A stretch of 64,000 bases of DNA from an uncultured delta proteobacterium (GCA_963737905.1 CAVTUQ010000005.1:1-64000); one strand, 5' to 3'. Numbered from the stretch's first letter, positions 23,080 to 54,530 are shown. The notes: generated by a model not told the origin, from the letters alone. Translations and numbers: made by a program.

Positions 23080-23115
23080 AAAACAAAAAGGGGCAGATGA
23101 AGTTTCTGCCCCTTT
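23080..23115 (-). terminator. Intrinsic terminator downstream of clpB and the small ORF
   Basis: 11-bp stem aaaggggcaga/tctgccccttt followed by a U-rich tail on the minus strand. Confidence 0.8.
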
Positions 23116-23320: not shown

Positions 23321-25948
23321 TCAATGGAGTGTCCTCTCTTCCCGGCCTTCGTTGTCCGCTACTGTACCGCTGTGACGAAACAGCATCTCGTCGTCATCCG
23401 AGTCGATCGTGATGCGGTCGCCTTCTTTGAATTCCCCTTCGAGGATCTTGACCGCCAACGGATCCTGAATCAATCGTTGTATGGTTCGCTTCAATGGCCG
23501 CGCGCCATAGACGGGGTCATAACCTTTGTCCGCAAGCAATGCTTTGGCCCGATCGGTAATTTCAAAGGCCATTTTTCTGCCCGCCAAGTTCTGGCGCAGC
23601 CGCCTGAGTTGGATCTCGACAATCGACTTGATTTCTTCCCGCCCCAGGCTGTTAAAGATGATAATCTCATCGACCCGGTTCAGGAATTCCGGCTTGAACG
23701 CGTCACGCAGCCCCGCCATGACTCGCTGCTCCATTTCTTTGCGGTTGGTGCCGGCCAAATCCTGAATGTACTGACTGCCCAGGTTCGATGTCATAATGAT
23801 CACCGTGTTCTTGAAATCGACGGTTCTACCTTGACCATCAGTCATCCGGCCGTCCTCGAGGATCTGCAGCAAAGCGTTAAAGACTTCCGGATGAGCTTTT
23901 TCAATTTCGTCGAACAGCACCACCGAATAGGGCCGGCGGCGGACGGCTTCCGTCAAGTATCCCCCCTCTTCATAGCCGACATAGCCCGGAGGAGCGCCGA
24001 TTAGCCGCGAGACGGAATGCTTTTCCATGAACTCGGACATATCGAGGCGAACCATCGCTTGTTCGTCGTCGAACAAGAATTCTGCCAGGGCACGGCAGAG
24101 TTCCGTTTTGCCGACACCCGTGGGACCAAGAAAAATAAACGACCCAATGGGACGGTTCTGATCCTGGAGCCCGGCGCGGGCGCGGCGGACGGCGTTGGAA
24201 ACCGCGTGGATCGCGCTCTCCTGCCCGACGACGCGAGCTTTCAGCCGGTCTTCCATCTTGAGGAGCTTCTGAATCTCGCCTTCGAGCATTTTCGAAACCG
24301 GAATCCCGGTCCACTTCGCCACCACTTCGGCTACGTCTTCCGCGTCCACCTCCTCCTTAAGCATCTTCTGGTCCTTTTGTAACTCCGCGAGTTTGCGGTT
24401 GGCGTCTTCCAGCTCTTTTTGCAGTTGAGTCATAGTCCCGTAGCGCAGCTCCGCGGCCCGGTTCAGATCTCCCTTGCGTTGTGCCTGTTGCTCCTCCACT
24501 TTGGTCGCTTCGATCTTCTCCTTGAGCTCACGAATGCGCTGAATCGATTCTTTTTCGTTTTTCCAGTGACCTTTCAGGCCATCGGACGTTTCCCGTAGGT
24601 TCTGAATTTCTCGCTCCAATTGAGTAAGTCTTTCCTTGGAGGCCTTGTCTTCTTCTCGCTTGAGGGCCTGTTTTTCGATCTCCAGCTGGAGAATCTTTCG
24701 CTCCACCTCGTCGATCTCGATGGGCATGCTGTCGATTTCGATTCTCAGCCTTGACGCCGACTCGTCGATTAGATCGATGGCTTTATCCGGCAAGAAACGA
24801 TCGCTGATGTAGCGATGGGACAGGGTGGCCGCGGCGATAATGGCACCGTCGGTGATGCGAACGCCGTGGTGGACTTCGTACCTTTCCTTGAGACCCCGCA
24901 AGATCGCGATCGTATCTTCAACGGAGGGCTCACCAACGTAGATCGGCTGAAACCGGCGTTCCAGGGCGGGGTCTTTCTCGACGCGTTTACGATACTCATC
25001 GAGGGTGGTGGCTCCCACACACCGCAGCTCGCCACGGGCAAGGGCGGGCTTCAGCATATTCGAGGCGTCCATCGCCCCCTCGGCCGCTCCTGCCCCCACC
25101 AGCGTGTGCAGCTCGTCGATAAAGAGAATAATCTGTCCGCTGGCGTCAGTCACTTCCTTTAGAACTGCCTTTAGACGGTCCTCAAATTCGCCACGGAATT
25201 TTGCGCCTGCAACCAGCGCTCCCAAATCGAGCGCTACAAGCCGTTTTTCTTTTAGTCCTTCAGGCACGTCGCCGTTGACGATTCGGAGCGCGAGCCCCTC
25301 GACAATGGCGGTTTTTCCCACACCGGGTTCTCCGATCAGCACCGGATTGTTTTTGGTTCGCCGTGACAGGACCTGGATCACCCGGCGAATCTCATCATCG
25401 CGTCCGATGACCGGATCCAGTTTTCCTTTGCGGGCCAGATCCGTAAGGTCCCGGCTGTATTTCTCCAGAGCCTGATATTTCTCTTCGGGGTTCGGATCGG
25501 TGATGCGTTGCGCGCCGCGAATGCTGACCAGCGCGTTTAAGATCTTATCTCGCGAGATGCCGAGCTCTTTAAGGATCTTGCCGGTTTCACCGCTGTCCTG
25601 GAGCATCGCGAGTAGCAAATGCTCGGCCGAAACGTAATCGTCCTTGAGTGCTTCTGCCTCCGCTTCCGCAGCTTCGATGGTTTTCTTTAGACGCGGGGTA
25701 ATGAATGCTTGACCGGTGGCCCCGGTAACTTGCGGGACGCGGTCGAGTGCCTTTTGCAGCCGCTCCGTAAGCGAGCCCGTCGGCGCACCCAGCTTTTGCA
25801 AGAGTGATAAGACCACCCCTTCTTTCTGGCCTAATAGGGCAAAAAGAAGATGTTCTACATCAATGGCTTGGTGGTTGCGTTTCTCAGCTAGCGATTGAGC
25901 GTGCTGCAGCGCTTCCTGTGATTTCGTAGTCAATTTATCGAGACGCAT
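23321..25948 (-). CDS. clpB: ATP-dependent disaggregase ClpB
   Basis: Two AAA modules ([16 protein letters not shown]), middle coiled-coil domain, [12 protein letters not shown]. Confidence 0.98.
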
Positions 25949-25971: not shown

Positions 25972-26000
25972 AAGTTAAGCATCGTTGCCATGGCTGTCAA
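25972..26000 (-). promoter_or_regulatory. Sigma-70-type promoter of clpB
   Basis: TTGACA-N17-TAACTT on the minus strand, followed by GAGGAG RBS. Confidence 0.65.
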
Positions 26001-26017: not shown

Positions 26018-26830
26018 TTATTCCTTGGGAAGCTGAAAAAATTCGAGTCCCTGGAAACCAGGTTCCTCGACCACGATGGGAATGGGTTGTTTGTCCGACC
26101 CAAGGAGAAAGATTCCATGGTCCTTAACGATGCTGAAAGGATATTCGTTCGGCTCTACCGCGGTGCCGCGCATCTTCTTCACGGTCAGAGTCCGCACGGG
26201 CCTGTCGTTATCGTGAGTCACCCTCAGGATCAAAACACCCGCGGCAAGAAACTCCTCAATCCCGTTGGTGAGGTCGTGGCTTGCCCGCGGCGGGAGATGA
26301 GAGGTAATAAGGTTGGTCGTGGCGAGATTGGACTGCAGCAAGTGGATCAACATCCTAGCGTGTTCTTGCACGCGCGTCGGTGAATCGCCGGACAAGATTA
26401 GCGGCGTGACAGGGTCGATCACCAGTCGTGTCGCCTCCAACTTCTTTGCGTAGGTCGCAAGATCCGACACAATCTTTTGCAGATCCACACCTTTATCTCC
26501 TACGGTGGCGGCTCGACCGCTGAAATAAGGAGACGCGTCTAGAATAGCGAAGCTCTTTGCCTGTACGTATTGTTGTAGGTCCCAGCCCAGCGACTCGGCC
26601 GCTTGCAGAATTTCCGCTGGGCGTTCGTCCACCGTCACATAAACCGCCTTTTCCTCCTGTGCCAGACCGCTTTGCAAAAACTGCATGCAAGCGGTGGTCT
26701 TTCCGGTGCCAGCGTCGCCGGTCACGAGATAAGAACGACCCGGGAGAAAACCTCCCTGTAATAGAGAGTCCAAAGTAGCGATCCCGGTGGAGACCCGTTT
26801 CACAGGTTCGGAAGGCGGTTCTTTAGCCAA
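26018..26830 (-). CDS. Single-domain KaiC/RAD55-like ATPase (2)
   Basis: RVSTGIATLDSLLQGG, GDAGTGKT, VDE, RLVIDP, IEEFLAAGV, VKKMRG. Confidence 0.92.
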   Translation of the reverse strand: MAKEPPSEPVKRVSTGIATLDSLLQGGFLPGRSYLVTGDAGTGKTTACMQFLQSGLAQEEKAVYVTVDERPAEILQAAESLGWDLQQYVQAKSFAILDASPYFSGRAATVGDKGVDLQKIVSDLATYAKKLEATRLVIDPVTPLILSGDSPTRVQEHARMLIHLLQSNLATTNLITSHLPPRASHDLTNGIEEFLAAGVLILRVTHDNDRPVRTLTVKKMRGTAVEPNEYPFSIVKDHGIFLLGSDKQPIPIVVEEPGFQGLEFFQLPKE

Positions 26831-26925
26831 AATTCACTCCAATGAAAAATTCGTACCAGCTCGTGCCAATACAATAGGAATAAGCCCCAAACTTAAAATC
26901 CCTGAGCCAAAGTGAATGTGCGCGC

Positions 26926-27648
26926 CTACGGCAGGGGTTGAAGGACGATGCCTTGCTTTTTGACGATGTCGAAATCATACTGCGCCGGCTTTACATCCGT
27001 GCAGCGCATTTTTTCAATCACGAGACTACGGCCCAATTGCCCTTCTTTCCAGATCATCTCGAGAACAATGGCACCGGCTACAAGATATTCTTCGACGCCA
27101 TGCATAGACCGCTCGCCGGTGCGCGGCACGGCGTAGGAGGTCAGGATATTGGTTGTGGACATCGTGGTCCGTAGCAGTTTCATAAGCAGACGCGTTTGAT
27201 CTTGTATGCGAGTCGTCGTGTCGCGTATTAGAACGAAAGGTCCCGCAGGGTCCAATACTAGCCGTTTGGCTTCCAACCTATTGACGAAACCGGCAAGATC
27301 GCCGATCGCCTTATGCACATCTATATGTCGATCTTTTCCGGCGCCCGGCAAAGAACTCAAATAGGTGCCGGCATTCAAAATCGCTAGTTCCTTAGTCTCG
27401 ATACGCTTTTCCAAATCCCATCCTAAGGATGCCGCTTGTTCGAGAATATCCATCGGGCCTTCATCCGCGGCTACATAGATTCCCTTTTCTCCACGGGCCA
27501 GCCCCTCAACGAGGAACTGCAGCGCAAAAATCGTCTTACCCGTTCCCGGCTCTCCAGTGACGAGAATGGATCGACCCTTAGGAAAACCACCCTCGAAGAG
27601 CGGATCAAGGCCCGAAATGCCACTCGGTACGCGTTCTATCTGGATCAT
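26926..27648 (-). CDS. Single-domain KaiC/RAD55-like ATPase (1)
   Basis: RVPSGISGLDPLFEGG, GEPGTGKT, ADE, RLVLDP, VEEYLVAGA, IEKMRC. Confidence 0.92.
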   Translation of the reverse strand: MIQIERVPSGISGLDPLFEGGFPKGRSILVTGEPGTGKTIFALQFLVEGLARGEKGIYVAADEGPMDILEQAASLGWDLEKRIETKELAILNAGTYLSSLPGAGKDRHIDVHKAIGDLAGFVNRLEAKRLVLDPAGPFVLIRDTTTRIQDQTRLLMKLLRTTMSTTNILTSYAVPRTGERSMHGVEEYLVAGAIVLEMIWKEGQLGRSLVIEKMRCTDVKPAQYDFDIVKKQGIVLQPLP

Positions 27649-27715
27649 ATTTGTTATCTCATTCTCCGGCCTTCAAATCATTCAAAATCAAATGCTCTTG
27701 CTTGGCGTATTGGCT

Positions 27716-30700
27716 TCACGACTTCCATCGACGTTTCCGGCCCAGGCTGAAGCGCCATCTTCGATTCTGGGGCGATATCAATGTTTGCTCGTTGTCGGCT
27801 TTGATGGTTTCGACCAGTTGTTCAAGCCGGCTCAATTTTTCTTTTTGGATCTCGGTTAGAGTTGGTTCTCCTAAAAGAAAGCCCTTGTGCGGACTCTCAA
27901 GCAGGGCTTGTTTTTCTGCCAATTCACTACGTAGACTATCAATCTGTGCTTGAAAGTTTTCCTCCAAATCGTTGACCGCCGCTTGCCGCTCCTCCAATAC
28001 CCGTTCCTTTTGACCTAGTTCCTCCCAGAGTTTATCTAGCTCGATCCTGGGTTGCTCTCCTTCGTGCTCAGTCGCATGCCGAGATTCTTGCTCAGCCTCC
28101 CTGGGTGCCGACTCTAAATAGGCGATCCGTTCTTGGATGGCATCCAGTTCTGCTTTAACGCGGAGCAGCTCATCATTGCGGTTTTGGAGCAAAGAATGCT
28201 TCTCTGCGACTTCCGCGTGCAAACCGGTGATTTCGAACTGAAGATTTTGTTCCGTAGAGTGCCATTCCGCTTCGCGTTGCTGCAGAGCTTCAACCTTCTG
28301 GTTGTTTTCCAGTAGCCGCGCTGCCAGCTCTGCTTGCGACTGCCGGTGTATTTCCTCTATTTCTCTAGCCGACCTTGCTGCTGCTTGCGTAAGCGCGCTT
28401 TCTGCTTGACCGATGCGATCGAGTAAACCAATGATCTTGGACTCAAGAGCTTGGATCTCATCGTTGCGGGTCCCGAGGACGACCCGGGTTTCTGCTAATT
28501 GCGTTTGCAAGTCAGTGACCTGAAGGCGAAGGTCTTGCTCCAAGCGACCGGCGACGACCCGTTGGTGTTCCAGCGCCGTTGTGTTGGTGCGTTCCAGATT
28601 ATTGACCTGGGCGAGCAGACCGCTAACCTGGTGGCGAAGCTCAGTCAGCTCGATATCTCGGCCTTCCATGAGCGACTGTTTTTCAGCGAGTTCCAGCTGC
28701 AGATCGGCAATGTTTGCATTAAGGACCGATTCCAACGCACGGGTCCGGTCAGCCACGACCTTAAGAGCGTTTTCCTTTTCCTTAAGTTGTGTGTCGAGCA
28801 CACCAATTTCTATTTTGACTTGCTCGCGAATTTGTTCCGCCTGCGTTGCAGCGAGCATCTCGGTCTGCTTGCGAGTGAACTCCGATTGAGCTACGTTTTC
28901 CCGAAGAGTAGATATTTCCGAATTCTTCTCCTGGAGTTCTGCGTTACCGTGATCCAGTAGTGTTTGCTTTTCTACCAGCTGAGCCTGGAGTCGGTGAATC
29001 TTGCTGTTGAGATCTTCCTCCAAGGCTCGAATCGTTGTCTGACGCTCCTCCAAGATGAGCTGCCTCTGGTCGAGTTCTGCTCGGAGACCGGCAAGTTCAA
29101 TCTGGTGTTGTTCTCTTGAATGCTCTATCCCGACCGAAGCGTTTGTTTCCGCGGCCGTTTTAGCCGACTCTAGCTCGTGCATCCGGTCCCGGAGCGCGAT
29201 GACTTCGAGCTTGGCACTCTGGAGTTCGCGCTTCTGGATTTCAAGTACCGTACGCTCCTCCGCCAGCTGGCTTTGGAGGTTGCGCAGTTCCGCCTGGAGG
29301 CCTTCGCCGGACTGTCTGAACTCGACTTCCCGTTGCGCGAACGTCTGGTCCCTTTGCTCTAGCGCTCGGTGAATCGTCGCCTAATTCGTTCTGCAGGGTT
29401 TCGCTTCTGCGCTGCGCTTCGTTCTTGGCCTCCTCGGTTTGCGTGGCGGTCAGTTCCAGGTGCTGGATGTGCTCCCGCAGCAGAGCGGTCTCGGATTGCG
29501 CGTTTTTAAGCTCGGTCGCGCGGTTTTGTAACAGTTCGGCTTTTTCAGAGTCGGTCGCTTCTAATTCTTGGACACGGGCCCGCAGGCTGTCTTCTATCGC
29601 CCGGGCCGCGGCCTTGGCTTCTTTGACGGTTTGTTTGTTGGCCAGTTCGAGGCAGGTGATTTGCTCCTGTAGATCGCTTGTCTTTGCAGCGAGCTTACCC
29701 ACCTCTTGGCTGCGGGCTTCAAGCAGACCATGCTCCTCCGCCAACTCCCTCTGCAAATCCCCTAGCTGCGCCGTGAAGGTTTGCTGCAAGTCGTAAGATT
29801 GTGCCTCACGATCCGCCAGGAGTCGCTTCAGATTTTTCAGTTCCTCCTGCCCCGCACCCAGTTCCGCTTCAAATCTTTGGCGAGCGAGGTCCGCATTGCT
29901 GGCGGCCGCTGTAGCTTCGTGCTGGCTAGCTTCAAGCTGAGCCAACTGCTCCGAGACGGAAGTTAATTGATTTCGCAGAGTGGCAATTTCAATGTTGCGG
30001 GTTTCCAGCAGTAACTGCTTTTCGGTTATTTGGATTTCTAGGTCGCGGATCTGGGCCTGCAGTCGGCCCTCAGATTCCCGAGCCAACAAGCGGGTTTCGG
30101 CTAACCCGTGTTCTTTTTCTTCCAGCTGCGTTTGAAGCACAGCCAATTTGCCCTGAAGCTCGCCGCGAATGCGTTCTATTTCTGCTGCGGCAAACATTTC
30201 CGCTTCAGAAGCGGCTGATTCCAACTGGGCAACGCGATTGCGGAGCACCGCCGTTTCGGAACCAATAGTTTGAAAGTCCTGGTCGCGACGATCCAGTAGC
30301 TCTTGTTTTTGCGTTAATTGATTTCTGAGATCTTGAATTTGGCCGTTAAGATTCGCCTCGAACTCAACAATCTCGGTTTGGCGCTTCTGGAGTGCCTGCT
30401 CCTTTTCTCGAAGGATCGCCTCTAACGCCGTTACCCGGAATTGAGATTCCTGGCGGACGCGCTCAACTGCGGTTGCCGCAGCTGCTTCGGCCTCGGCGCG
30501 GAGAGACTCGAGCTGGGTAACGTGTTCCTTCAGTCCGGCAACCTGCTCGGCAACATGACCTAGGTCTCCATCTTTTGCGTCCAGTAGTTGCTGTTTTTCC
30601 GCCAGCAGGCTTTGAAGGTTGTGTAGTTCCGCCTGGAGGCCTTCGTTGGACTGGCTGAACTCGACTTCCCGTTGCGCGAACGTCTGGTCCCTTTGCTCTA

Positions 30701-32413
30701 GCGCTCGGTGAACGTCGCCTAATTCGTTCTGCAACGCTTCGCTTCTGCGGTGCGCTTCGTTCTTGGCCTCCTCGGTCTGTATGGCGGTCAGCTCCAGGTG
30801 CTGGAGGCGCTCCCGCAGCAGAGCGGTCTCGGATTGTGCGCTTTCAAGCTCGGCCGTGCGGTTTTGTAACCCTTGGGCCTTTTCTGCAGCGGTCGCTTCT
30901 AATTCTTGGACACGGGCCCGCAGGCCGTCTTCTATTGCCCGGGCGGCGGCGTTAGCTTCTTTAACCGTTTGTTTGTTGGCCAATTCGAGACAGGTGATTT
31001 GCTCCTGTAGGTCGCTCGTCCTTGCGGTGAGTTCGCCAACCTCTTGGCTGCGAGTCTCAAGCAGCCCCTGCTTCTCTGCCAACTCTCCCTGCAAATCGTG
31101 CAGCTGCGCGGTGAGACGTTCCTCCAATTCCCTCGTAGCCGCGTGATCTTGTTGTAAAGAAAAATCCTTCTCTTCAACAGCTGTGCGCAGCATAACCAGC
31201 TCGGCTTGCAGGGTTTCTCGGATTTGTGTTGCTTCACTTGCTGCAGCTTCGGTTTGTGCGGCGGTCAGTTCCAGGCGCTGGATGTGCTCCCGCAGCAGAG
31301 CGGTCTCGGATTGCGCGCTTTCAAGCTCGGCCGTGCGGTTCTGTAACCCTTGGGCCTTTTCTGAAGCGGTCGCTTCTAATTCTTGGACACGGGCCCGCAG
31401 GCCGTCTTCTATCGCCCGGGCCGCGGCCTTGGCTTCTTTGACAGTTTGTTTGTTGGCCAGTTCGAGGCAGGTGATTTGCTCCTGTAGATCGTTTGTCTTT
31501 GCAGCGAGCTCACCCACCTCTTGGCTGCGGGTTTTAAGCAACTCCTGTTTTTCCGCCAGCTGATTCTGCAGATCCTGCAGCTGCGCGCTTAGCCGCTCTT
31601 CCAGCTCCCTCGTCGTCGTCTGATTTTGTTGTAGCGATAAGTCCTTTTGCTCAAGTGCCGTGCGGAGCAGGCCAGTTCAGCTTGCAGGGTTTCCTGGATT
31701 TTTTTGCTTCGCTGGTCTGCCGCCTCTGTCTGCGCCCGGTTAGTGCGAGCTGTTGCATGTGCTGCCGCAGCAAAGCTCCGAGTGCCGACTGAGTGCTCTG
31801 CAGCTCCGTGCGTGCGGTTTTCCAGAAGTTCAGCTTTTGCGGCTAGCTGGCGCGCAAATCTCGGATTTCTGCGCGCAGTTTATCCTTCAACTTCTTTGAC
31901 TTGAAGTCTGAAGGAGCCTGCAGCGCCGATTCCTTCCTACTCGAGTTGTCCCTCTAGAGCGGCCAGTTCATCTTGCAAGGTTTCTTAGTGCGAGCTACTT
32001 CGACTCTCGATGCTGCATAGGCTTTTTGTACGGTTGATTCCAGACTGAGCGATGCGCTGCTGGAGCGCATGTGCGTCGGATCTGGCAGAATCGAGCTCCG
32101 TCTTGCCGAACTTGCAACAAACACTGAGTCGTAACAGCTGAGCGCTTGCAGCTCTTGAAGCCTCTGCTCTTAGATCTTGATCCGCCTGATGGGAAATCGT
32201 CTGTTGCGTTTCTAGAGCTAGTTCTTTTTGCTTGAGTTCTTTCTGGAGTGCGGTTAACTCTGCTTGAAAGCGTTCCTGAGCTCTTGCAGCCTCGTTCGCC
32301 GCCGTCGCCTGGGCTTGCTTTACATAGAGCTCCATCAAGCGCACTTGAGTGGAGAGAATCTCGTCATTTATAACGATCAAAGAGGGATGCATATTCTGCT
32401 TGCTGGAATCCAT
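27716..32413 (-). CDS. Giant repetitive coiled-coil protein (~1,560 aa; split by apparent indel errors)
   Basis: ORFs 31985-32461, 29241-31541 and 27716-29182 share continuous E/Q/L/A heptad composition. The break at 29374 is one extra T relative to the intact internal copy near 30712. Confidence 0.8.
29288..31530 (-). repeat. Three intragenic near-identical DNA repeats
   Basis: ctcttggctgcg at 29703, 31041 and 31518 (offsets 1338 and 477 bp), encoding RSQEVG..DLQEQITCLELANKQTVKEA..SETALLRE. Confidence 0.9.
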
Positions 32414-32469
32414 TAGCGGGCCCTTACTGTCGCTCCCGACGCACACGGCGAAACGAAGCAATGACCGAG

Positions 32470-32485
32470 TGCTAAAAGCGTGCCA
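32470..32485 (-). promoter_or_regulatory. Candidate sigma-54 (-24/-12) promoter
   Basis: TGGCACGCTTTTAGCA (GG-N10-GC), 57 nt upstream of the coiled-coil ATG. Confidence 0.7.
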
Positions 32486-32725
32486 CCCTATATTTATAAA
32501 GCTCCATGAAATCGGCTATTTAGGTTTTATTCTGTTGGAGAATCAGGGTAGTATTGACGACAAAAAGCAGAATTCTGGACAAAATCGAAAATCGTTTGAC
32601 AAAAATGTCTTGAGGCATTGACACAACGATATTTGAAGGGCGAGGAAATTACTTCAAAAATGGCCCGGCACTGTCAGGCAGAGCGTAATTGAAACGGGCC
32701 GAGGCCAGGGCTAAAATTCAACGTC

Positions 32726-33790
32726 ATGCCAGCCTATTTTAGAAAAAATATTGACGCTCTCGCAGGCTATGTTCCGGGAGAGCAACCCCGCGACGAAAAC
32801 GTTATCAAGCTCAATACCAACGAGAATCCGTACCCTCCATCCCCGAGGGTTTTTGCGGCACTACGGACAGCGATCAATCGCTCGTTGCGTTTATATCCGG
32901 AGCCACTGGCTGATAGTCTGCGCGCCGTTGCCGCGAGCGTCTACGGTGTGAAGCCAGAAAATATTCTCGCTGGTAACGGCTCGGATGAGATTCTCTCGAT
33001 CCTGATGCGCTCGTTTGTTGGGCAACAGGATCGGGTGGCCTTTCCTGTCCCAACTTATTCTCTCTACGACACCTTGATTGCGATCCAGCAGGGAGAGCGG
33101 ATCACGGTGGCTTATCCGCCGGATTTTTCCATTCCCGAAGCATTGATATCGCAAAATGCGGCGCTCACTTTTTTGTGCAACCCCAATTCTCCTTCGGGAA
33201 CTCTCGTCTCGCTCCAGGACATTGAACGACTCGCGCGCGCAGTGTCGGGCATCGTCGTGATTGATGAAGCCTACGTTGACTTCGCCGAGAGCGAGGGGGC
33301 ATCAACCTTGCCGTTGATTCGACATTTCCCCAATCTCGTCGTGTTACGAACTTTTTCAAAATCGTTTTCGCTTGCTGGGATGCGTATCGGACTCGCTTTT
33401 GCGTCCGAGAAAATTATCTCCGGCATGATAAAAGTGAAGGACTCGTATAATTTGAATCGCTTGAGCTTGGTCGCGGCCACCGCAGCCTTGCAGGACATAC
33501 CTTGGATGATGCGCAATGTCAGACGGATCCAGCACAGCCGAACACGGCTCACCGCCGGACTCAGAAAGGTGGGCTTTTACGTTTATCCGTCGCATGCTAA
33601 TTTCGTCATGGCGCGAAAGAAAGAGCAAAATTTAAAAGGGGTCTACGAGAGGTTAAAAAGTCGGCAGATCTTAGTGCGGTATTTTGACGTACCCGGTCTA
33701 CACGACTCGCTTCGCATCACCGTGGGTACGCCCCAGGAAATCCAGTCCTTGTTGAAAGAGTTGAAGGCCATCCGCAACAATCCGACGTAA
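32726..33790 (+). CDS. hisC: Histidinol-phosphate aminotransferase
   Basis: YVPGEQP, KLNTNENPY, GNGSDE, NPNSPSG, DEAYVDF, RTFSKSFSLAGMRIG. Confidence 0.95.
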   Translation: MPAYFRKNIDALAGYVPGEQPRDENVIKLNTNENPYPPSPRVFAALRTAINRSLRLYPEPLADSLRAVAASVYGVKPENILAGNGSDEILSILMRSFVGQQDRVAFPVPTYSLYDTLIAIQQGERITVAYPPDFSIPEALISQNAALTFLCNPNSPSGTLVSLQDIERLARAVSGIVVIDEAYVDFAESEGASTLPLIRHFPNLVVLRTFSKSFSLAGMRIGLAFASEKIISGMIKVKDSYNLNRLSLVAATAALQDIPWMMRNVRRIQHSRTRLTAGLRKVGFYVYPSHANFVMARKKEQNLKGVYERLKSRQILVRYFDVPGLHDSLRITVGTPQEIQSLLKELKAIRNNPT

Positions 33791-35886: not shown

Positions 35887-38151
35887 GTGGAGAATCAGGG
35901 CGCAGAAAAACGCAATGAGCGCACCGTATTGCAGGGAACCATCGGTCGAATTACCTACCAGCACCCCGACACGCACTACACGGTTGCACGGATCGAGATC
36001 GACGGGGCCCCCGCTGTGACGGTCATAGGTGTGATCTTTCCAGTTTCTGAAGGCGAAGAGATCAAAGTCACGGGGTTCTGGAAGACGCACCCCCGCTATG
36101 GACTGCAATTCCAGGTCGATCATTGGGAGAAGATCGATCCGGCGACCATCGAAGGCATCGAAAAATATTTGGGCTCCGGTTTGATTAAAGGCATCGGTCC
36201 TACTTACGCGAGGCGGCTGGTGTCTGCCTTCGGCCTCGACACCTTGCGGGTTTTATCTGAGGAGCCCCTGCGCATTCTGGAGGTCGACGGCATCGGCGAG
36301 GTTCGGGCGCGTCGCATCATGCAAGCGTGGCAAGAACAGCGGGGCATGCAGGACGTCATGGTGTTTCTCCAAGGACACGGCGTAGGCGCGTCGATGGCAC
36401 TCAGAATCTATCGTGTGTTCGGTTCCGCGACTATAGACCGCATCAGAGAGAACCCGTACGGGTTAGCGCAGGAAGTTCACGGCATTGGATTTCTGCTCGC
36501 AGATAGAATCGCTAACAGCATTGGCATCAGTGGCGATTTCCCCCTCAGAGTTTACGCCGGAGTTCTCCATGTACTTAGAGAGTTTGCCGAGCAGGGTCAT
36601 TGCTTTGTGCCTCTGGTTACCTTGAAGCGCAATGCGGCGGCGATTCTAGGTGTGGAAGAAGATCCTGTGGAGGCTGCAGTCGAAAAGCTGGCGGCGGCGG
36701 GCAAGTTGGTTATCCAAGAAGCCGGCGATGGCGAAGTGAGACAGGTCTTTCTGGAAGAGCTGTATCACGCCGAGCGTCGGGTGGCCGCTGCTTTGCGCAA
36801 CTTGCTCTCGACGCCTTCTTCTTTGCAAAAGGAGAAAATCTCCGGTCCATGGAATAATTCCGGCGGAACATCACGCGGCGTTATTGATCTGGCGAGCCCG
36901 GAGCTGTTCGGACCTTCCACGGTCACCTTGGATGAAGATCAAGTTCACGCGACGCAGCAGGCCTTGCGTGAAAAGGTCTTGGTTATCACCGGCGGTCCTG
37001 GAACCGGCAAGACGACTCTACTGACGGTGCTCCTGACTATTCTCCGGCGGGCCAAAGTATCCTTCGTGTTGGCAGCGCCCACGGGCCGTGCGGCAAAGCG
37101 GATGACCGAGAGCGCTGGCGAAGAAGCGATGACGATCCACCGGCTCCTGGAATACAATCCTCGTGAAGGCGGCTTTCAGAGAAGCGAAGAGAATCCGCTG
37201 CAAGTCGATTTCGTGATCGTGGACGAGGCGTCTATGGTGGACCTGGTGCTTATGGATCACTTGTTGCGGGCAGTGGATCCACACACTCATTTGATACTGA
37301 TCGGGGACGTGGATCAGCTCCCGTCGGTGGGTCCGGGTAGTGTGCTGCGGGATCTGATCGATTCCGGGATTATTCCCACGGTGGTGCTGCGTCGTATTTT
37401 CAGGCAGGACCGCCAAAGCTTGATCGTGGTCAACGCCCATCGAATCCTCCAGGGCCATCACTTGGTTTTAGGCGAACAAGGCGAAAAACGGGATTTCGTT
37501 TTTATGGCACGAGAATCAGAGGAAGAAATTCTCCAAGCGGTCAAAGAGCTTTTGGTAAAGCACATACCGCATTCGCTGCAACTGGAATCGCAGAAAGTCT
37601 CGCAAGCCATTCAAGTTCTTACACCGATGCACCGCGGTCTGCTCGGTACGATCAACCTCAACCGCGAGATGCAAAACCTGCTCAACCCAGTCGGCGAAAG
37701 TTTGGAACGAAGTGGATCGCCCCTGCGTCTGGGCGACAAAGTGATGCAGCTGCGCAACAACTACGACAAAGGTGTCTTCAACGGCGACTTGGGGCGCATC
37801 GCCACCATTAACCGGGAAGAGAATAGTATTAAAGTCGACTTTTACGACAAGCTGGTAGAGTACGAATCCGACGAGCTGGACGAGATCAACCTCGCCTATG
37901 CGACGTCGGTGCACAAGAGCCAGGGAAGCGAGTACCCGATTGTCGTTATTCCGCTTCACACTTCGCACTACCTGCTGCTGCACCGCAGCATTCTCTACAC
38001 GGCGGTGACCCGAGGGAAGAAATTGGTTGTTCTGGTGGGTAGCAGAAAGGCGCTAGCAATGGCGATTCGTAACGTCCGGCTGGAGAGGAGAAATACCGGA
38101 CTAAAAGAGAAGCTGATCGAGATCTCCAAAACAGCGAGCCGATTCTTCTAA
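35887..38151 (+). CDS. recD2: ATP-dependent RecD2 helicase
   Basis: YLGSGLIKGIGP, GGPGTGKT, APTGRAAKR, VDEASM, GDVDQLPSVGPG, HKSQGSEY, YTAVTRGK. Confidence 0.95.
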   Translation: MENQGAEKRNERTVLQGTIGRITYQHPDTHYTVARIEIDGAPAVTVIGVIFPVSEGEEIKVTGFWKTHPRYGLQFQVDHWEKIDPATIEGIEKYLGSGLIKGIGPTYARRLVSAFGLDTLRVLSEEPLRILEVDGIGEVRARRIMQAWQEQRGMQDVMVFLQGHGVGASMALRIYRVFGSATIDRIRENPYGLAQEVHGIGFLLADRIANSIGISGDFPLRVYAGVLHVLREFAEQGHCFVPLVTLKRNAAAILGVEEDPVEAAVEKLAAAGKLVIQEAGDGEVRQVFLEELYHAERRVAAALRNLLSTPSSLQKEKISGPWNNSGGTSRGVIDLASPELFGPSTVTLDEDQVHATQQALREKVLVITGGPGTGKTTLLTVLLTILRRAKVSFVLAAPTGRAAKRMTESAGEEAMTIHRLLEYNPREGGFQRSEENPLQVDFVIVDEASMVDLVLMDHLLRAVDPHTHLILIGDVDQLPSVGPGSVLRDLIDSGIIPTVVLRRIFRQDRQSLIVVNAHRILQGHHLVLGEQGEKRDFVFMARESEEEILQAVKELLVKHIPHSLQLESQKVSQAIQVLTPMHRGLLGTINLNREMQNLLNPVGESLERSGSPLRLGDKVMQLRNNYDKGVFNGDLGRIATINREENSIKVDFYDKLVEYESDELDEINLAYATSVHKSQGSEYPIVVIPLHTSHYLLLHRSILYTAVTRGKKLVVLVGSRKALAMAIRNVRLERRNTGLKEKLIEISKTASRFF

Positions 38152-38855
38152 TTCTGTTGGAACAACCGGCCCAGCGCCTTATTGGTGTGGGTAATCCCCA
38201 GCTTCTTTAAGCAAGCCCAGAGGGTAGCTTGATTGCTGCTGATTACAGGCTTGCCGAGATCCTGTTCCAAGTCGTTGATTGCTTCGATCATGCGTGTGTT
38301 CGTACAGCTGAGGAAATAGCCTTCGGCGTTTGGTCGAGTATTCTCCTTAACAACCTGGATCCATTGTTCCGGCGTGACAGCGCTGTAGCCGTCGCTTTCA
38401 AGCCCGAGTCCCAGCTCATGGAGCACCGTAAATCCGGCTTCGGTGAGGTATTGGACCTCGTGCTCGTTGGTTTGTTTCACATAGGGACTGATGAGCACGA
38501 GTTTCTTGATGCCAAAGTGCGCGAATGCCTCCCGGATAGCCTGCGCCGTCGTGATCGTCGGGCAGCCGCTGGCGCTTTGAATCGTTTCCACCAAAGCGGC
38601 TTCGTGGGCGAGCCCATTTTCCATTGAATTGGCGGTACAATGAAAAACAATCAAATCAGGCTTGGTGTCCGATAGTGCTTCCGCTGCTTCGGTGAGAGAT
38701 TTTTTCAGCTCGCCCGGCGGCTTGCGCCACTGGCCGGTCATGCGGAGCCGGGTAATGTAGATCCCCGTACCCGGCGGCGCATATTGGTTGAATTGCGGCT
38801 CGGTCAGCCGATTGCCGGAGGGAATGATCAAACCGATGCGTGCTTGGGTATTCAT
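38148..38855 (-). CDS. Maleate isomerase/arylmalonate decarboxylase (Asp/Glu racemase) domain, in frame with upstream amidohydrolase
   Basis: RIGLIIPSGN, FHCT, ISPY, LSCTN, PVISSNQA; internal ATG at 38855. Confidence 0.85.
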   Translation of the reverse strand: MNTQARIGLIIPSGNRLTEPQFNQYAPPGTGIYITRLRMTGQWRKPPGELKKSLTEAAEALSDTKPDLIVFHCTANSMENGLAHEAALVETIQSASGCPTITTAQAIREAFAHFGIKKLVLISPYVKQTNEHEVQYLTEAGFTVLHELGLGLESDGYSAVTPEQWIQVVKENTRPNAEGYFLSCTNTRMIEAINDLEQDLGKPVISSNQATLWACLKKLGITHTNKALGRLFQQN

Positions 38856-39947
38856 AAGTCCTGGCGCTCCGAGGTTGTAAAACCTGCGAGCATTGCCGTG
38901 GAGGAAGGCGGCTTTGTCCGCGGCGGTCAATCCTTCGTTCTCCAACATTTCGTCGATTTCATGCTTGCAGAACTCGTTATTGACTTCATGTGGGAAATCG
39001 CTGGAATAAACAAAGGGCTTGTTGCCGATTCGCTTGACAGCATGGGCGACATCGGGTTCGTCGCCTTCGCAGCCGACGAAAATGTGCCCTTCGTCGACAT
39101 GGCGGGCGATGTAGTCGCTGACCTTTTCTTTGGGACGAAGCTCCAAAAAGCGCTTACGCGGATCGTGCTGAATGTGGGTCTCCCAGGAGCGGTCGAAGCG
39201 TTCCAAACAGACGAGCAACCAAGCAACCCCGCCTTCCATGAAGCCAAACTTCACGTTCGGGAACTTGTCGAAAACACCGTTGAAGACGATACCGCCAAAA
39301 GAAATCATCTGGCCAAAGGGATGGCCGAGGGCATGGACAGGGGCATAAGGAGTCACGTCATCGAGACCCAAATTCTCGTGGGCGCCGCCGTGGATGCCGA
39401 TGGCACAGCCCAGTTCGTTTGCCGCTTGATAGATTGGCCAGTAGCGCTTGTCGCCTAGGTTTGCCTGAATTCCCGTCGAAGGCAACATCGCGCCGCACAT
39501 ACCCAATTCTTTCACGGCTCTTTTTAGTTCTTCCACCGCCGCTTCCGGCTCCTGCAAGGGGATCAAGGCCATGCCTTTAAAGCGCGGGCTTCGCTTCATG
39601 TACGTTTGGTGCAACCAGTCGTTGTACGCGCGGGCGACGTCGATGGCCCAATCGCGGCTGACGATCTTGCCGAAAGCGAGACCGAGAGTGGTGTAAAGAA
39701 CGGAGGTCTCAATCCCCACGTCTTCTAAAAAGTCTATCCAGCCGTCAGGACCGACCTTATTGAAGGCACCCGGCGGAAAGTCATGGAGGTTCGACGAATG
39801 AAGATGGTCAAGCGGCGGGAATGGATTGAAGAAGGGATGGGTATCGTATTTCTCCTGATATACCGCGGGCATGAATTCAACGATCGCTTTGGTATCTTCA
39901 ATCACATGTCCGTCGCCATCGACGATGGTGTGGCCTTTGAATGGCAT
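38856..39947 (-). CDS. Amidohydrolase_2 family protein (reads through into downstream domain)
   Basis: VDGDGHV, AYNDWL, FMEGGVAW, YSSDFPH, NARRFY. Confidence 0.88.
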
Positions 39948-54444: not shown

Positions 54445-54530
54445 TGGTGCCGGAGGAGGGACTTGAACCCTCACAGGGTTACCCCTACCGGATTTTGAGT
54501 CCGGCGCGTCTGCCATTCCACCACTCCGGC
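54445..54530 (-). tRNA. tRNA-Leu(CAA)
   Basis: GCCGGAGTGGTGGAATGGCAGACGCGCCGGACTCAAAATCCGGTAGGGGTAACCCTGTGAGGGTTCAAGTCCCTCCTCCGGCACCA: long variable arm, encoded CCA. Confidence 0.97.

Follow-up and report, generated by a model that had tools for sequence, protein, structure and literature searches.

What would a very large coiled-coil protein and two single-domain relatives of the clock ATPase KaiC do together behind one promoter? This question is raised by a stretch of 64,000 nucleotides from an uncultured delta proteobacterium (GCA_963737905.1, CAVTUQ010000005.1:1-64000), which was analysed as a whole and is called the window here. A preliminary description of this DNA had pointed to a long coiled-coil gene, hereafter the rod gene, followed by two KaiC-family genes, ATPase A and ATPase B. 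In the present study, the locus was compared with its relatives, with protein families and with known systems. We favour, tentatively and at a little less than even probability, a combined reading in which a sigma-54-dependent operon encodes an ATP-dependent switch with a scaffold, and not a clock. The operon appears to be confined to a single lineage of family level, whose members are uncultured bacteria of soil and groundwater and mostly bear the label Candidatus Binatia; ATPase A is inherited together with the rod there.

To our knowledge, single-domain KaiC-like ATPases are widespread in bacteria and yet almost uncharacterised there. One of them gains a clear co-inherited partner at this locus, which is well defined, lineage-restricted and experimentally approachable; the organisms themselves are uncultured. 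A literature search of main texts found no paper treating both Binatia and KaiC, and none, a 2017 survey of KaiC-like ATPases not being covered, that describes the family of rods, their association with an ATPase of the KaiC-CI type or their regulation. The ATPase family is known, and the other three are apparently undescribed in the literature searched.

Results and Discussion

The three genes lie co-oriented on the minus strand, as found by open reading frame (ORF) listing and three-frame translation of the window, and the gaps of 67 bp (rod to ATPase A) and 95 bp (ATPase A to ATPase B) reported earlier agree with the coordinates in Table 1. The sigma-54-type element TGGCACGCTTTTAGC is located 58 nt upstream of the ATG at 32413. 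Sigma-54-like patterns occur at chance level across the window (57 found, 64 expected), so the sequence of the element alone proves nothing. Its place is conserved, as the pattern TGGCAYG-N4-TRGC stands at the same position in 26 of 29 complete spacers between hisC and the operon. An alignment of 28 spacers contains a conserved block, TTTTGTCCA ... TTTGTCCA, with the direct repeats of a candidate upstream activator site and, in between, an AT-rich conserved block. The first repeat copy of the window reads TTGTCAA and hence was found by a relaxed pattern only; the loose pattern gave 7 matches, as against 5 in the reversed/complemented control. The genome carries rpoN (C37) and 31 enhancer-binding proteins, none of which is on this contig. 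The spacing, the position, the presence of RpoN and the upstream repeats all agree with a predicted sigma-54-dependent promoter of the operon, as had been proposed from the first inspection. Together with the candidate activator site, it makes a clean regulatory signature, and the pairing of repeat and sigma-54 element occurs only here in the genome of the window.

Relatives were scanned with one genome per species, which gave 63 loci. All are titled as uncultured metagenome-assembled genomes; the label is Candidatus Binatia or Deltaproteobacteria bacterium for most of them and something else for a few. Two genomes flagged as unpublished, G012 and G006, support none of the conclusions drawn here. 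Four architectures occur between hisC and clpB, namely rod, A and B; rod and A without B; a single KaiC-like gene; and a KaiC-like gene with a REC-KaiC gene and a kinase. Orthologs of ATPase A, defined by 65% identity or more, are present at 35 loci, and at 33 of these a gene of the coiled-coil family or its tail lies directly upstream. An upstream coiled-coil ORF on the same strand was seen at 30 loci, with lengths from 93 to 1,641 amino acids, a range of about 17-fold between close relatives, and three more have the tail only, which lies there out of frame or at the edge of a contig. The two loci without a rod have spacers of 496 bp (L029) and 421 bp (L062). No match to the N- or C-terminus of the rod was found at any of the 28 loci lacking ATPase A. 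The genes are syntenic in relatives, which was the point that the preliminary description had left to a neighbourhood analysis, and these counts show joint inheritance of ATPase A and the rod. In a class-wide sample of 201 genomes, where absence means not found in the genomes searched, the rod tail was present only in family f1, where the genome of the window and 4 of 13 others have it; none of the 187 genomes that represent 19 other families did.

A maximum-likelihood tree of 94 KaiC domains was calculated with IQ-TREE under LG+G4 and rooted on the CII domains, with Shimodaira-Hasegawa-like approximate likelihood ratio test (SH-aLRT) values as the only support measure. It placed all genes of the locus in one clade (98) adjoining the CI domains. 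The 35 rows of ATPase A grouped in one clade (SH-aLRT 95) and the 26 rows of ATPase B in another (99), whose sister group (100) consists of 10 KaiC-like genes that stand alone beside clpB. Since B is sister to these genes, the tree identifies it as orthologous to an older KaiC-like gene of the stand-alone kind and as the older resident of the hisC-clpB position, and the rod and ATPase A look like a pair that was added later. Between hisC and clpB, sister lineages carry a KaiC-like gene, a fusion of a receiver with a degenerate KaiC, and a REC-PAS-HisKA-HATPase hybrid kinase (L023:2067-5903, L024:2104-5427, L027:7133-9052). The locus illustrates the rewiring of a KaiC-type gene, from kinase and receiver partners in those lineages to a structural partner here.

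Both ATPases match PF06745 (KaiC) with 197.8 bits (A) and 197.3 bits (B) against a cut-off of 26.6 (E about 1e-58), over profile positions 1-228 and 1-226 of 231, respectively. Their best solved matches are to the KaiC CI half, residues about 10-250 (about 10-245 for ATPase A), and both also match the archaeal proteins PH0186, PH0284 and SSO2452 (235-251 amino acids). In an alignment of 35 ATPase A, 26 ATPase B and 4 CI domains from double-domain KaiCs of related genomes, the EE motif is conserved, and conservation at 90% or more of the A and B sequences was found for Walker A (GEPGTGKT in A, GDAGTGKT in B), the catalytic acidic pair (ADE and VDE, which is D-E instead of E-E), Walker B (LDP and IDP, Asp being followed by Pro) and the arginine finger (KMRCT and KMRGT). 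The intact Walker A, the Walker B ending in DP and the EEY/EEF noted at first are all seen in ATPases A and B. The EE(Y/F), which had been taken for an unusual substitute for the phosphosites, is the ordinary sequence of a CI domain (GVEEF in KaiC CI; GlEEy in the reference CI consensus). ATPases A and B are single-domain KaiC-CI-type proteins of the RecA superfamily that keep the catalytic motifs. With the KaiC CI half and the three archaeal proteins they have in common the Pfam family, Walker A, the acidic pair, Walker B, EE and the arginine finger. In contrast to the archaeal single-domain proteins, they are bacterial, come as two tandem paralogs, have the D-E pair and a Pro after Walker B, and are accompanied by a coiled-coil rod.

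No CII domain and no Ser/Thr phosphosite is present in ATPase A or B, and KaiB (PF07689) had no match in the genome of the window, which is 87% complete; the operon is not a clock. It shares with cyanobacterial KaiABC the homologous ATPase fold and the CI-half motifs, but lacks CII and the phosphosites, and KaiA and KaiB are not encoded nearby. ATPases A and B are the only two full-length KaiC-family genes of this genome, in which four further PF06745 matches are partial and lie in frames of 352-473 amino acids. Some genomes of the same family carry double-domain KaiC homologs of 549-634 amino acids elsewhere (L092-L095: G013, G005, G023, G004), and the window's genome is without one.

Both ATPases score far under the curated thresholds of all NCBIfam models that they matched at E <= 0.01. 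For circadian clock KaiC (NF006799, TIGR02655), each has one domain and scores 143.8/160 bits against 408 and 101.7/128.5 against 546. The archaellum protein ArlH/FlaH (NF052589, NF004723, NF006320) gave 39.5-45.6 bits against cut-offs of 194-215, and no arl genes are among the neighbours. GvpD (PF07088) matched ATPase A with 25.1 bits over only 38 residues round Walker A and ATPase B with 19.7 bits, below the cut-off of 24; no gvp genes are among the neighbours. The archaeal KaiC-domain subfamilies TIGR03877, TIGR03880 and TIGR03881 gave 110-131 bits against cut-offs of 248-307. A known anti-phage defence system was also rejected, as PADLOC returned only mad8 with 21-23 bits over the P-loop and matches to LmuB/JetC arms; the fixed chromosomal position of the operon across relatives was weighed against a defence system as well.

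ATPase B has a C-terminal extension, missing from ATPase A, that ends in LEFFQLPKE after a variable linker (26018-26110, minus strand). Both ATPase B and the stand-alone genes sister to it share a motif of the type (L/F)E(F/Y)FxΦxK, which reads LQPFEPEK in the sister clade; it was seen at L030, L033, L038, L053, L062 and others. This acidic and aromatic peptide is a candidate docking motif.

The rod ends in the basic and aromatic tail RRWRFSLGRKRRWKS, as first described, and carries the N-terminal motif LIVINDEILSTQVRLMELYVKQAQ. In 23 aligned family members the tail follows the pattern (R/G)(R/K)W(R/H)xGxxWKRRWK(S/T), in which W, K, R and W are invariant, and it is preceded throughout the family by a last helical unit, an FVLG-type motif and a polar linker. 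A search of 1.84 billion cluster representatives with a profile built on the last 110 residues returned only 133 proteins at E <= 0.001. The tail stands at the very C-terminal end in 99 of them, and 24 of the set also have the N-terminal motif and are complete, with 316-1,564 amino acids. No significant Pfam family was found for the rod; NCBIfam and PADLOC likewise gave generic coiled-coil resemblance only, and an Atlas search with the C-terminal 122 residues alone had no match of 0.85 or higher, scores of 0.84 or less being leads at most.

The rod is built of repeats. The tail-region profile matches up to 16 times inside one protein, and autocorrelation showed a 96-residue repeat in the rod of a congener (G002), which has a hydrophobic period of 3.55 residues and 0.4% proline. 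The rod gene of the window contains 300-nt repeats at 84-89% identity. In the G002 rod, residues 461-660 are an exact 200-residue duplication of 936-1135 (offset 475), next to tandem 28-residue units, which is evidence of a very recent internal expansion. From the duplications in the congener and in the window, the length of the rod changes by internal duplication, and it varies between relatives with the number of repeats. An AlphaFold model of the last 488 residues of the window's rod, made from the single sequence, had a mean predicted local distance difference test (pLDDT) value of 71, with helices at 2-197, 208-366, 376-429 and 442-467; it is about 90% helical, and the periodicity is heptad-like. 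The tail is disordered in both AlphaFold models (pLDDT about 57-65). When ATPase A and the C-terminal 110 residues of the rod were modelled as a complex, the score was 0.01 against a mark of 0.32, which has no bearing on whether they bind.

Crescentin, FilP/Scy and the like are long, repeat-built alpha-helical rods without enzymatic domains, as is the rod here. There is no detectable sequence relation, and none of these bacterial coiled-coil-rich proteins is known to have a KaiC-like ATPase as partner or to be under sigma-54 control.

The preliminary description had proposed a membrane-anchored filament or scaffold gated by a split KaiC, in which ATPases A and B would form stacked or mixed hexamers in place of CI and CII. 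The co-orientation of the three genes behind one promoter, the helical, heptad-like rod, a tail whose last 16 residues have a net charge of +8 and could bind acidic lipids, and the action of ArlH inside the scaffold ring of ArlX, as described in PMC5019145 and 10.1101/2021.03.19.436134, are all in line with such a system. It has a low probability on our evidence, however, as the two ATPases are CI-type paralogs, neither is CII-like, and ATPase B has stand-alone orthologs and is missing from seven loci that have the rod and ATPase A (L034, L042, L045, L047, L048, L050, L051). The membrane anchor finds no support either. No hydrophobic or transmembrane-like segment was found in the rod, the best 19-residue Kyte-Doolittle mean being 1.18 (congener); a value of 1.89 in the L051 rod is located in a doubtful upstream extension. 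A membrane helix of the MinD/FtsA type in the tail was rejected because it has no amphipathic moment (0.26 at 100 degrees, a value reached by 63% of shuffles).

A nucleoid or DNA-associated system is very improbable. In it, a RecA-superfamily ATPase would act with an SMC/Rad50-like rod whose Arg/Trp tail rests on nucleic acid, to which the charge of the tail would be suited. The rod profile also resembles SMC, Rad50, JetC and LmuB arms weakly, the ATPases show a faint similarity to RecA, RadA and RadB, and recD2 and dinB-type genes lie within 10 kb. The rod, however, matches coiled-coil arms only and far under the cut-offs (17-39 bits against 300-1,087, for example 37 bits against 567), which led us to reject it as an SMC, Rad50, JetC or LmuB protein, and Pfam found in it neither an ABC-type ATPase head nor a hinge. 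The ATPases reach about 1e-58 for KaiC but no better than 1e-5 for RecA and Rad51, and recD2 and dinB belong to separate units of different orientation.

The neighbouring clpB suggests another function, in which the two ATPases, alone or together with the rod, would cooperate with or regulate ClpB as a proteostasis or stress module. The gene follows the KaiC-like set directly in all four architectures of the 63 loci and in the window (69 bp after ATPase B). There is no strong terminator between ATPase B and clpB, and a strong terminator-like hairpin was found 3' of clpB at 23087-23115; moreover, Pseudomonas double-domain KaiC homologs aid stress resistance (10.1101/2022.01.26.477890). Against this, a promoter-like element of its own precedes clpB in each of the 12 gaps compared, and the order hisC-X-clpB-MFS is conserved, so that the adjacency may be inherited gene order and not function. 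We regard the module as improbable, and clpB is probably a separate transcription unit, which read-through from the operon could still reach. The element upstream of clpB, TTCTTGACA-N13-14-GATGCTTAACTT, is strongly conserved in the gaps of the window and 11 related loci; the conservation extends past the -35/-10 hexamers and may mark a regulator site.

In the favoured reading of a sigma-54-dependent switch with a scaffold, some enhancer-binding protein would turn the operon on through the TTTGTCCA repeats. Each ATPase would form a RecA-type ring, as CI and one-domain archaeal homologs form such rings (a hexameric ring is described for one archaeal homolog in 10.1101/075291), and would serve as a nucleotide-dependent switch in signalling. 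The signalling role is suggested by the kinase and receiver partners in sister lineages and by a kinase-bound Pseudomonas KaiC homolog. As reported in 10.1101/2022.01.26.477890, the Pseudomonas proteins are non-clock, act via two-component partners and affect stress resistance, and the sister lineages, with their KaiC-like gene, REC-KaiC and hybrid kinase, are similar to them. The present operon differs from these double-domain, phosphorylated homologs in having no kinase or receiver and a rod instead. The rod would be a scaffold or adaptor for ATPase A, and its basic tail might dock on a negatively charged surface, be it lipid, nucleic acid or protein.

Several observations weigh against this reading. 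The promoter pattern is missing from 3 of the 29 complete spacers. Three genomes have ATPase A and no rod, namely G001, which keeps a 33-residue remnant, G014, with the 421-bp spacer, and G008, which has both ATPases, only about 150 bp upstream and no match to the tail. With these and the seven rod-A loci without ATPase B, the parts appear separable. Furthermore, every functional step of the switch and scaffold is inferred from sequence. In G001, a genome of the same genus, the remnant (L022:2727-2830) is an ORF that starts with the N-terminal motif and ends in ...RQERW, with the promoter and both ATPases intact; it is either a real deletion or a collapse of a short-read contig.

A more specific form of the switch and scaffold is unlikely in our view. 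In this form, the rod would be a new ATP-controlled scaffold or cytoskeletal element whose length is set by repeat number and shifts rapidly by internal duplication, and ATPase A its KaiC-type assembly, disassembly or positioning factor; the pair would be a bacterial counterpart of ArlX-ArlH under a dedicated sigma-54 activator. For the favoured reading as a whole, the closest working analogy is the archaellum motor, where ArlH acts within a ring of ArlX. ArlH (FlaH) is a single-domain KaiC-like protein that works with the large coiled-coil scaffold ArlX (FlaX), as stated in PMC5019145 and 10.1101/2021.03.19.436134. The ArlH profile, however, gave about 40 bits against a cut-off of 215, and no ArlI, ArlJ or archaellin genes are nearby. 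The likeness of the rod to ArlX is one of description, and ArlX has an N-terminal transmembrane domain according to the latter source, which the rod does not.

Integrity of the rod gene

The preliminary description gave the rod as an almost pure coiled coil of about 1,560 residues. The size (about 1,565 codons) and the helical character hold, but the gene is not intact, with at least six frameshifts of ±1 in this assembly. It is not one ORF in the window and falls into three main frames, 31985-32461 (158 amino acids), 31676-29244 and 29380-27719, the last two of which are open. An intact ortholog of 1,641 amino acids with a tail of identical type is present in G002, a genome of the same genus (L016:5098-10023, minus strand), and its residues 5-207, 220-1096 and 1098-1641 fall in alternating frames of the window at 50-60% identity. 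A frameshift-aware alignment to this protein located five ±1 shifts within the first 750 nt, near 32041, 31985, 31936, 31850 and 31668, and the stops seen in any single frame vanish when the frame is followed across the shifts. The start is likely the ATG at 32413 (MDSSKQ...), in agreement with the congener (MESSK), and not the TTG at 32461. At the sixth lesion, the repeat copies D2 and D1 abut at 30712/30713, yet one base parts them at 29374.

Contigs from four public runs, 92-99% alike to the window, were compared. One base is missing from them at 29374 or 29376, an A is added behind 31671 in two runs, and a base is missing at 32161; joints that skip 74-492 bases occur in single contigs only, and no inference was drawn from them. 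Elsewhere in the window, a 599-residue ORF at 38148-39947 (minus strand) joins an amidohydrolase to an arylmalonate-decarboxylase-like domain. Its counterparts in G002 and G023 are two overlapping ORFs of 364 and 235 amino acids, and at the junction the window has one extra T (GGACTTATGA as against GGAC-TATGA), which is probably an assembly indel. As this T merges unrelated neighbour genes, it suggests indel noise at the level of the assembly.

We consider it rather likely that the frameshifts of the rod gene are assembly indels and not real decay, since the lesions are only of the ±1 type, no stop is left in the followed frame, other contigs differ by one base, and the neighbour genes carry the extra T. 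Three points tell against an assembly error. The comparison contigs may come from other strains. They give no cover at 31875-32045 in any of the four runs, and almost none at 31704-31874. The indel contexts are not obvious homopolymers, so that real pseudogenisation in this strain keeps some probability. That the rod is a true pseudogene here, with the two ATPases alone functional, is a question separate from the functional readings, and we think it doubtful. The number of disruptions, the remnant in G001 and the two further genomes with ATPase A and no rod agree with decay; the intact repeat structure and tail and the absence of any larger deletion, as well as the one-base differences at 29374/29376, 31671 and 32161 in near-identical contigs, speak for a sound gene.

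Features and neighbouring genes

Table 1. Positions of the features described, counted from the first letter of the window.
Feature	Position	Strand	Remarks
Candidate upstream activator site	32576-32602	minus	Direct repeat TTTGTC(A/C)A in two copies at a distance of about 20 nt; some 115 nt upstream of -24/-12
Sigma-54-type element TGGCACG-N4-TAGC (-24/-12)	32471-32485	minus	GG-N10-GC spacing
Coiled-coil rod gene	27716-32413	minus	About 1,565 codons; at least six ±1 frameshifts in this assembly
N-terminal rod motif	32309-32380	minus	Family consensus LLLNEIEILLTQxRLxELYLKQAQ
Stretch with five inferred ±1 frameshifts	31668-32041	minus	Frameshift-aware alignment to congener protein
Sixth lesion, one extra base	29374	minus	Shifts the frame between the 766- and 488-amino-acid ORFs
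C-terminal Arg/Trp tail	27719-27763	minus	Last 16 residues with net charge +8
ATPase A	26926-27648	minus	240 amino acids
ATPase B	26018-26830	minus	270 amino acids
clpB promoter-like element TTGACA-N17-TAACTT	25972-26000	minus	Present in 12/12 compared gaps upstream of clpB
clpB	23321-25948	minus	875 amino acids; Pfam ClpB domain set; conserved neighbour

A hisC-type aminotransferase gene (32726-33790) is located upstream of the operon and is divergent from it, and two MFS transporter genes lie beyond clpB on the downstream side. Eighteen neighbouring ORFs between 13334 and 44430 were scanned, and no kai, kinase, gvp or flagellar genes were found among them, in agreement with what had been noticed at first. 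The gap between ATPases A and B contains a weak hairpin followed by a T-run (26851-26874, minus strand), and within the hairpin is a TGGCACG heptamer without a matching -12 element. Rfam and tRNA scans gave no match within the range of the operon, and the only RNA gene found in the window is a tRNA-Leu (CAA) at 54445-54530 on the minus strand.

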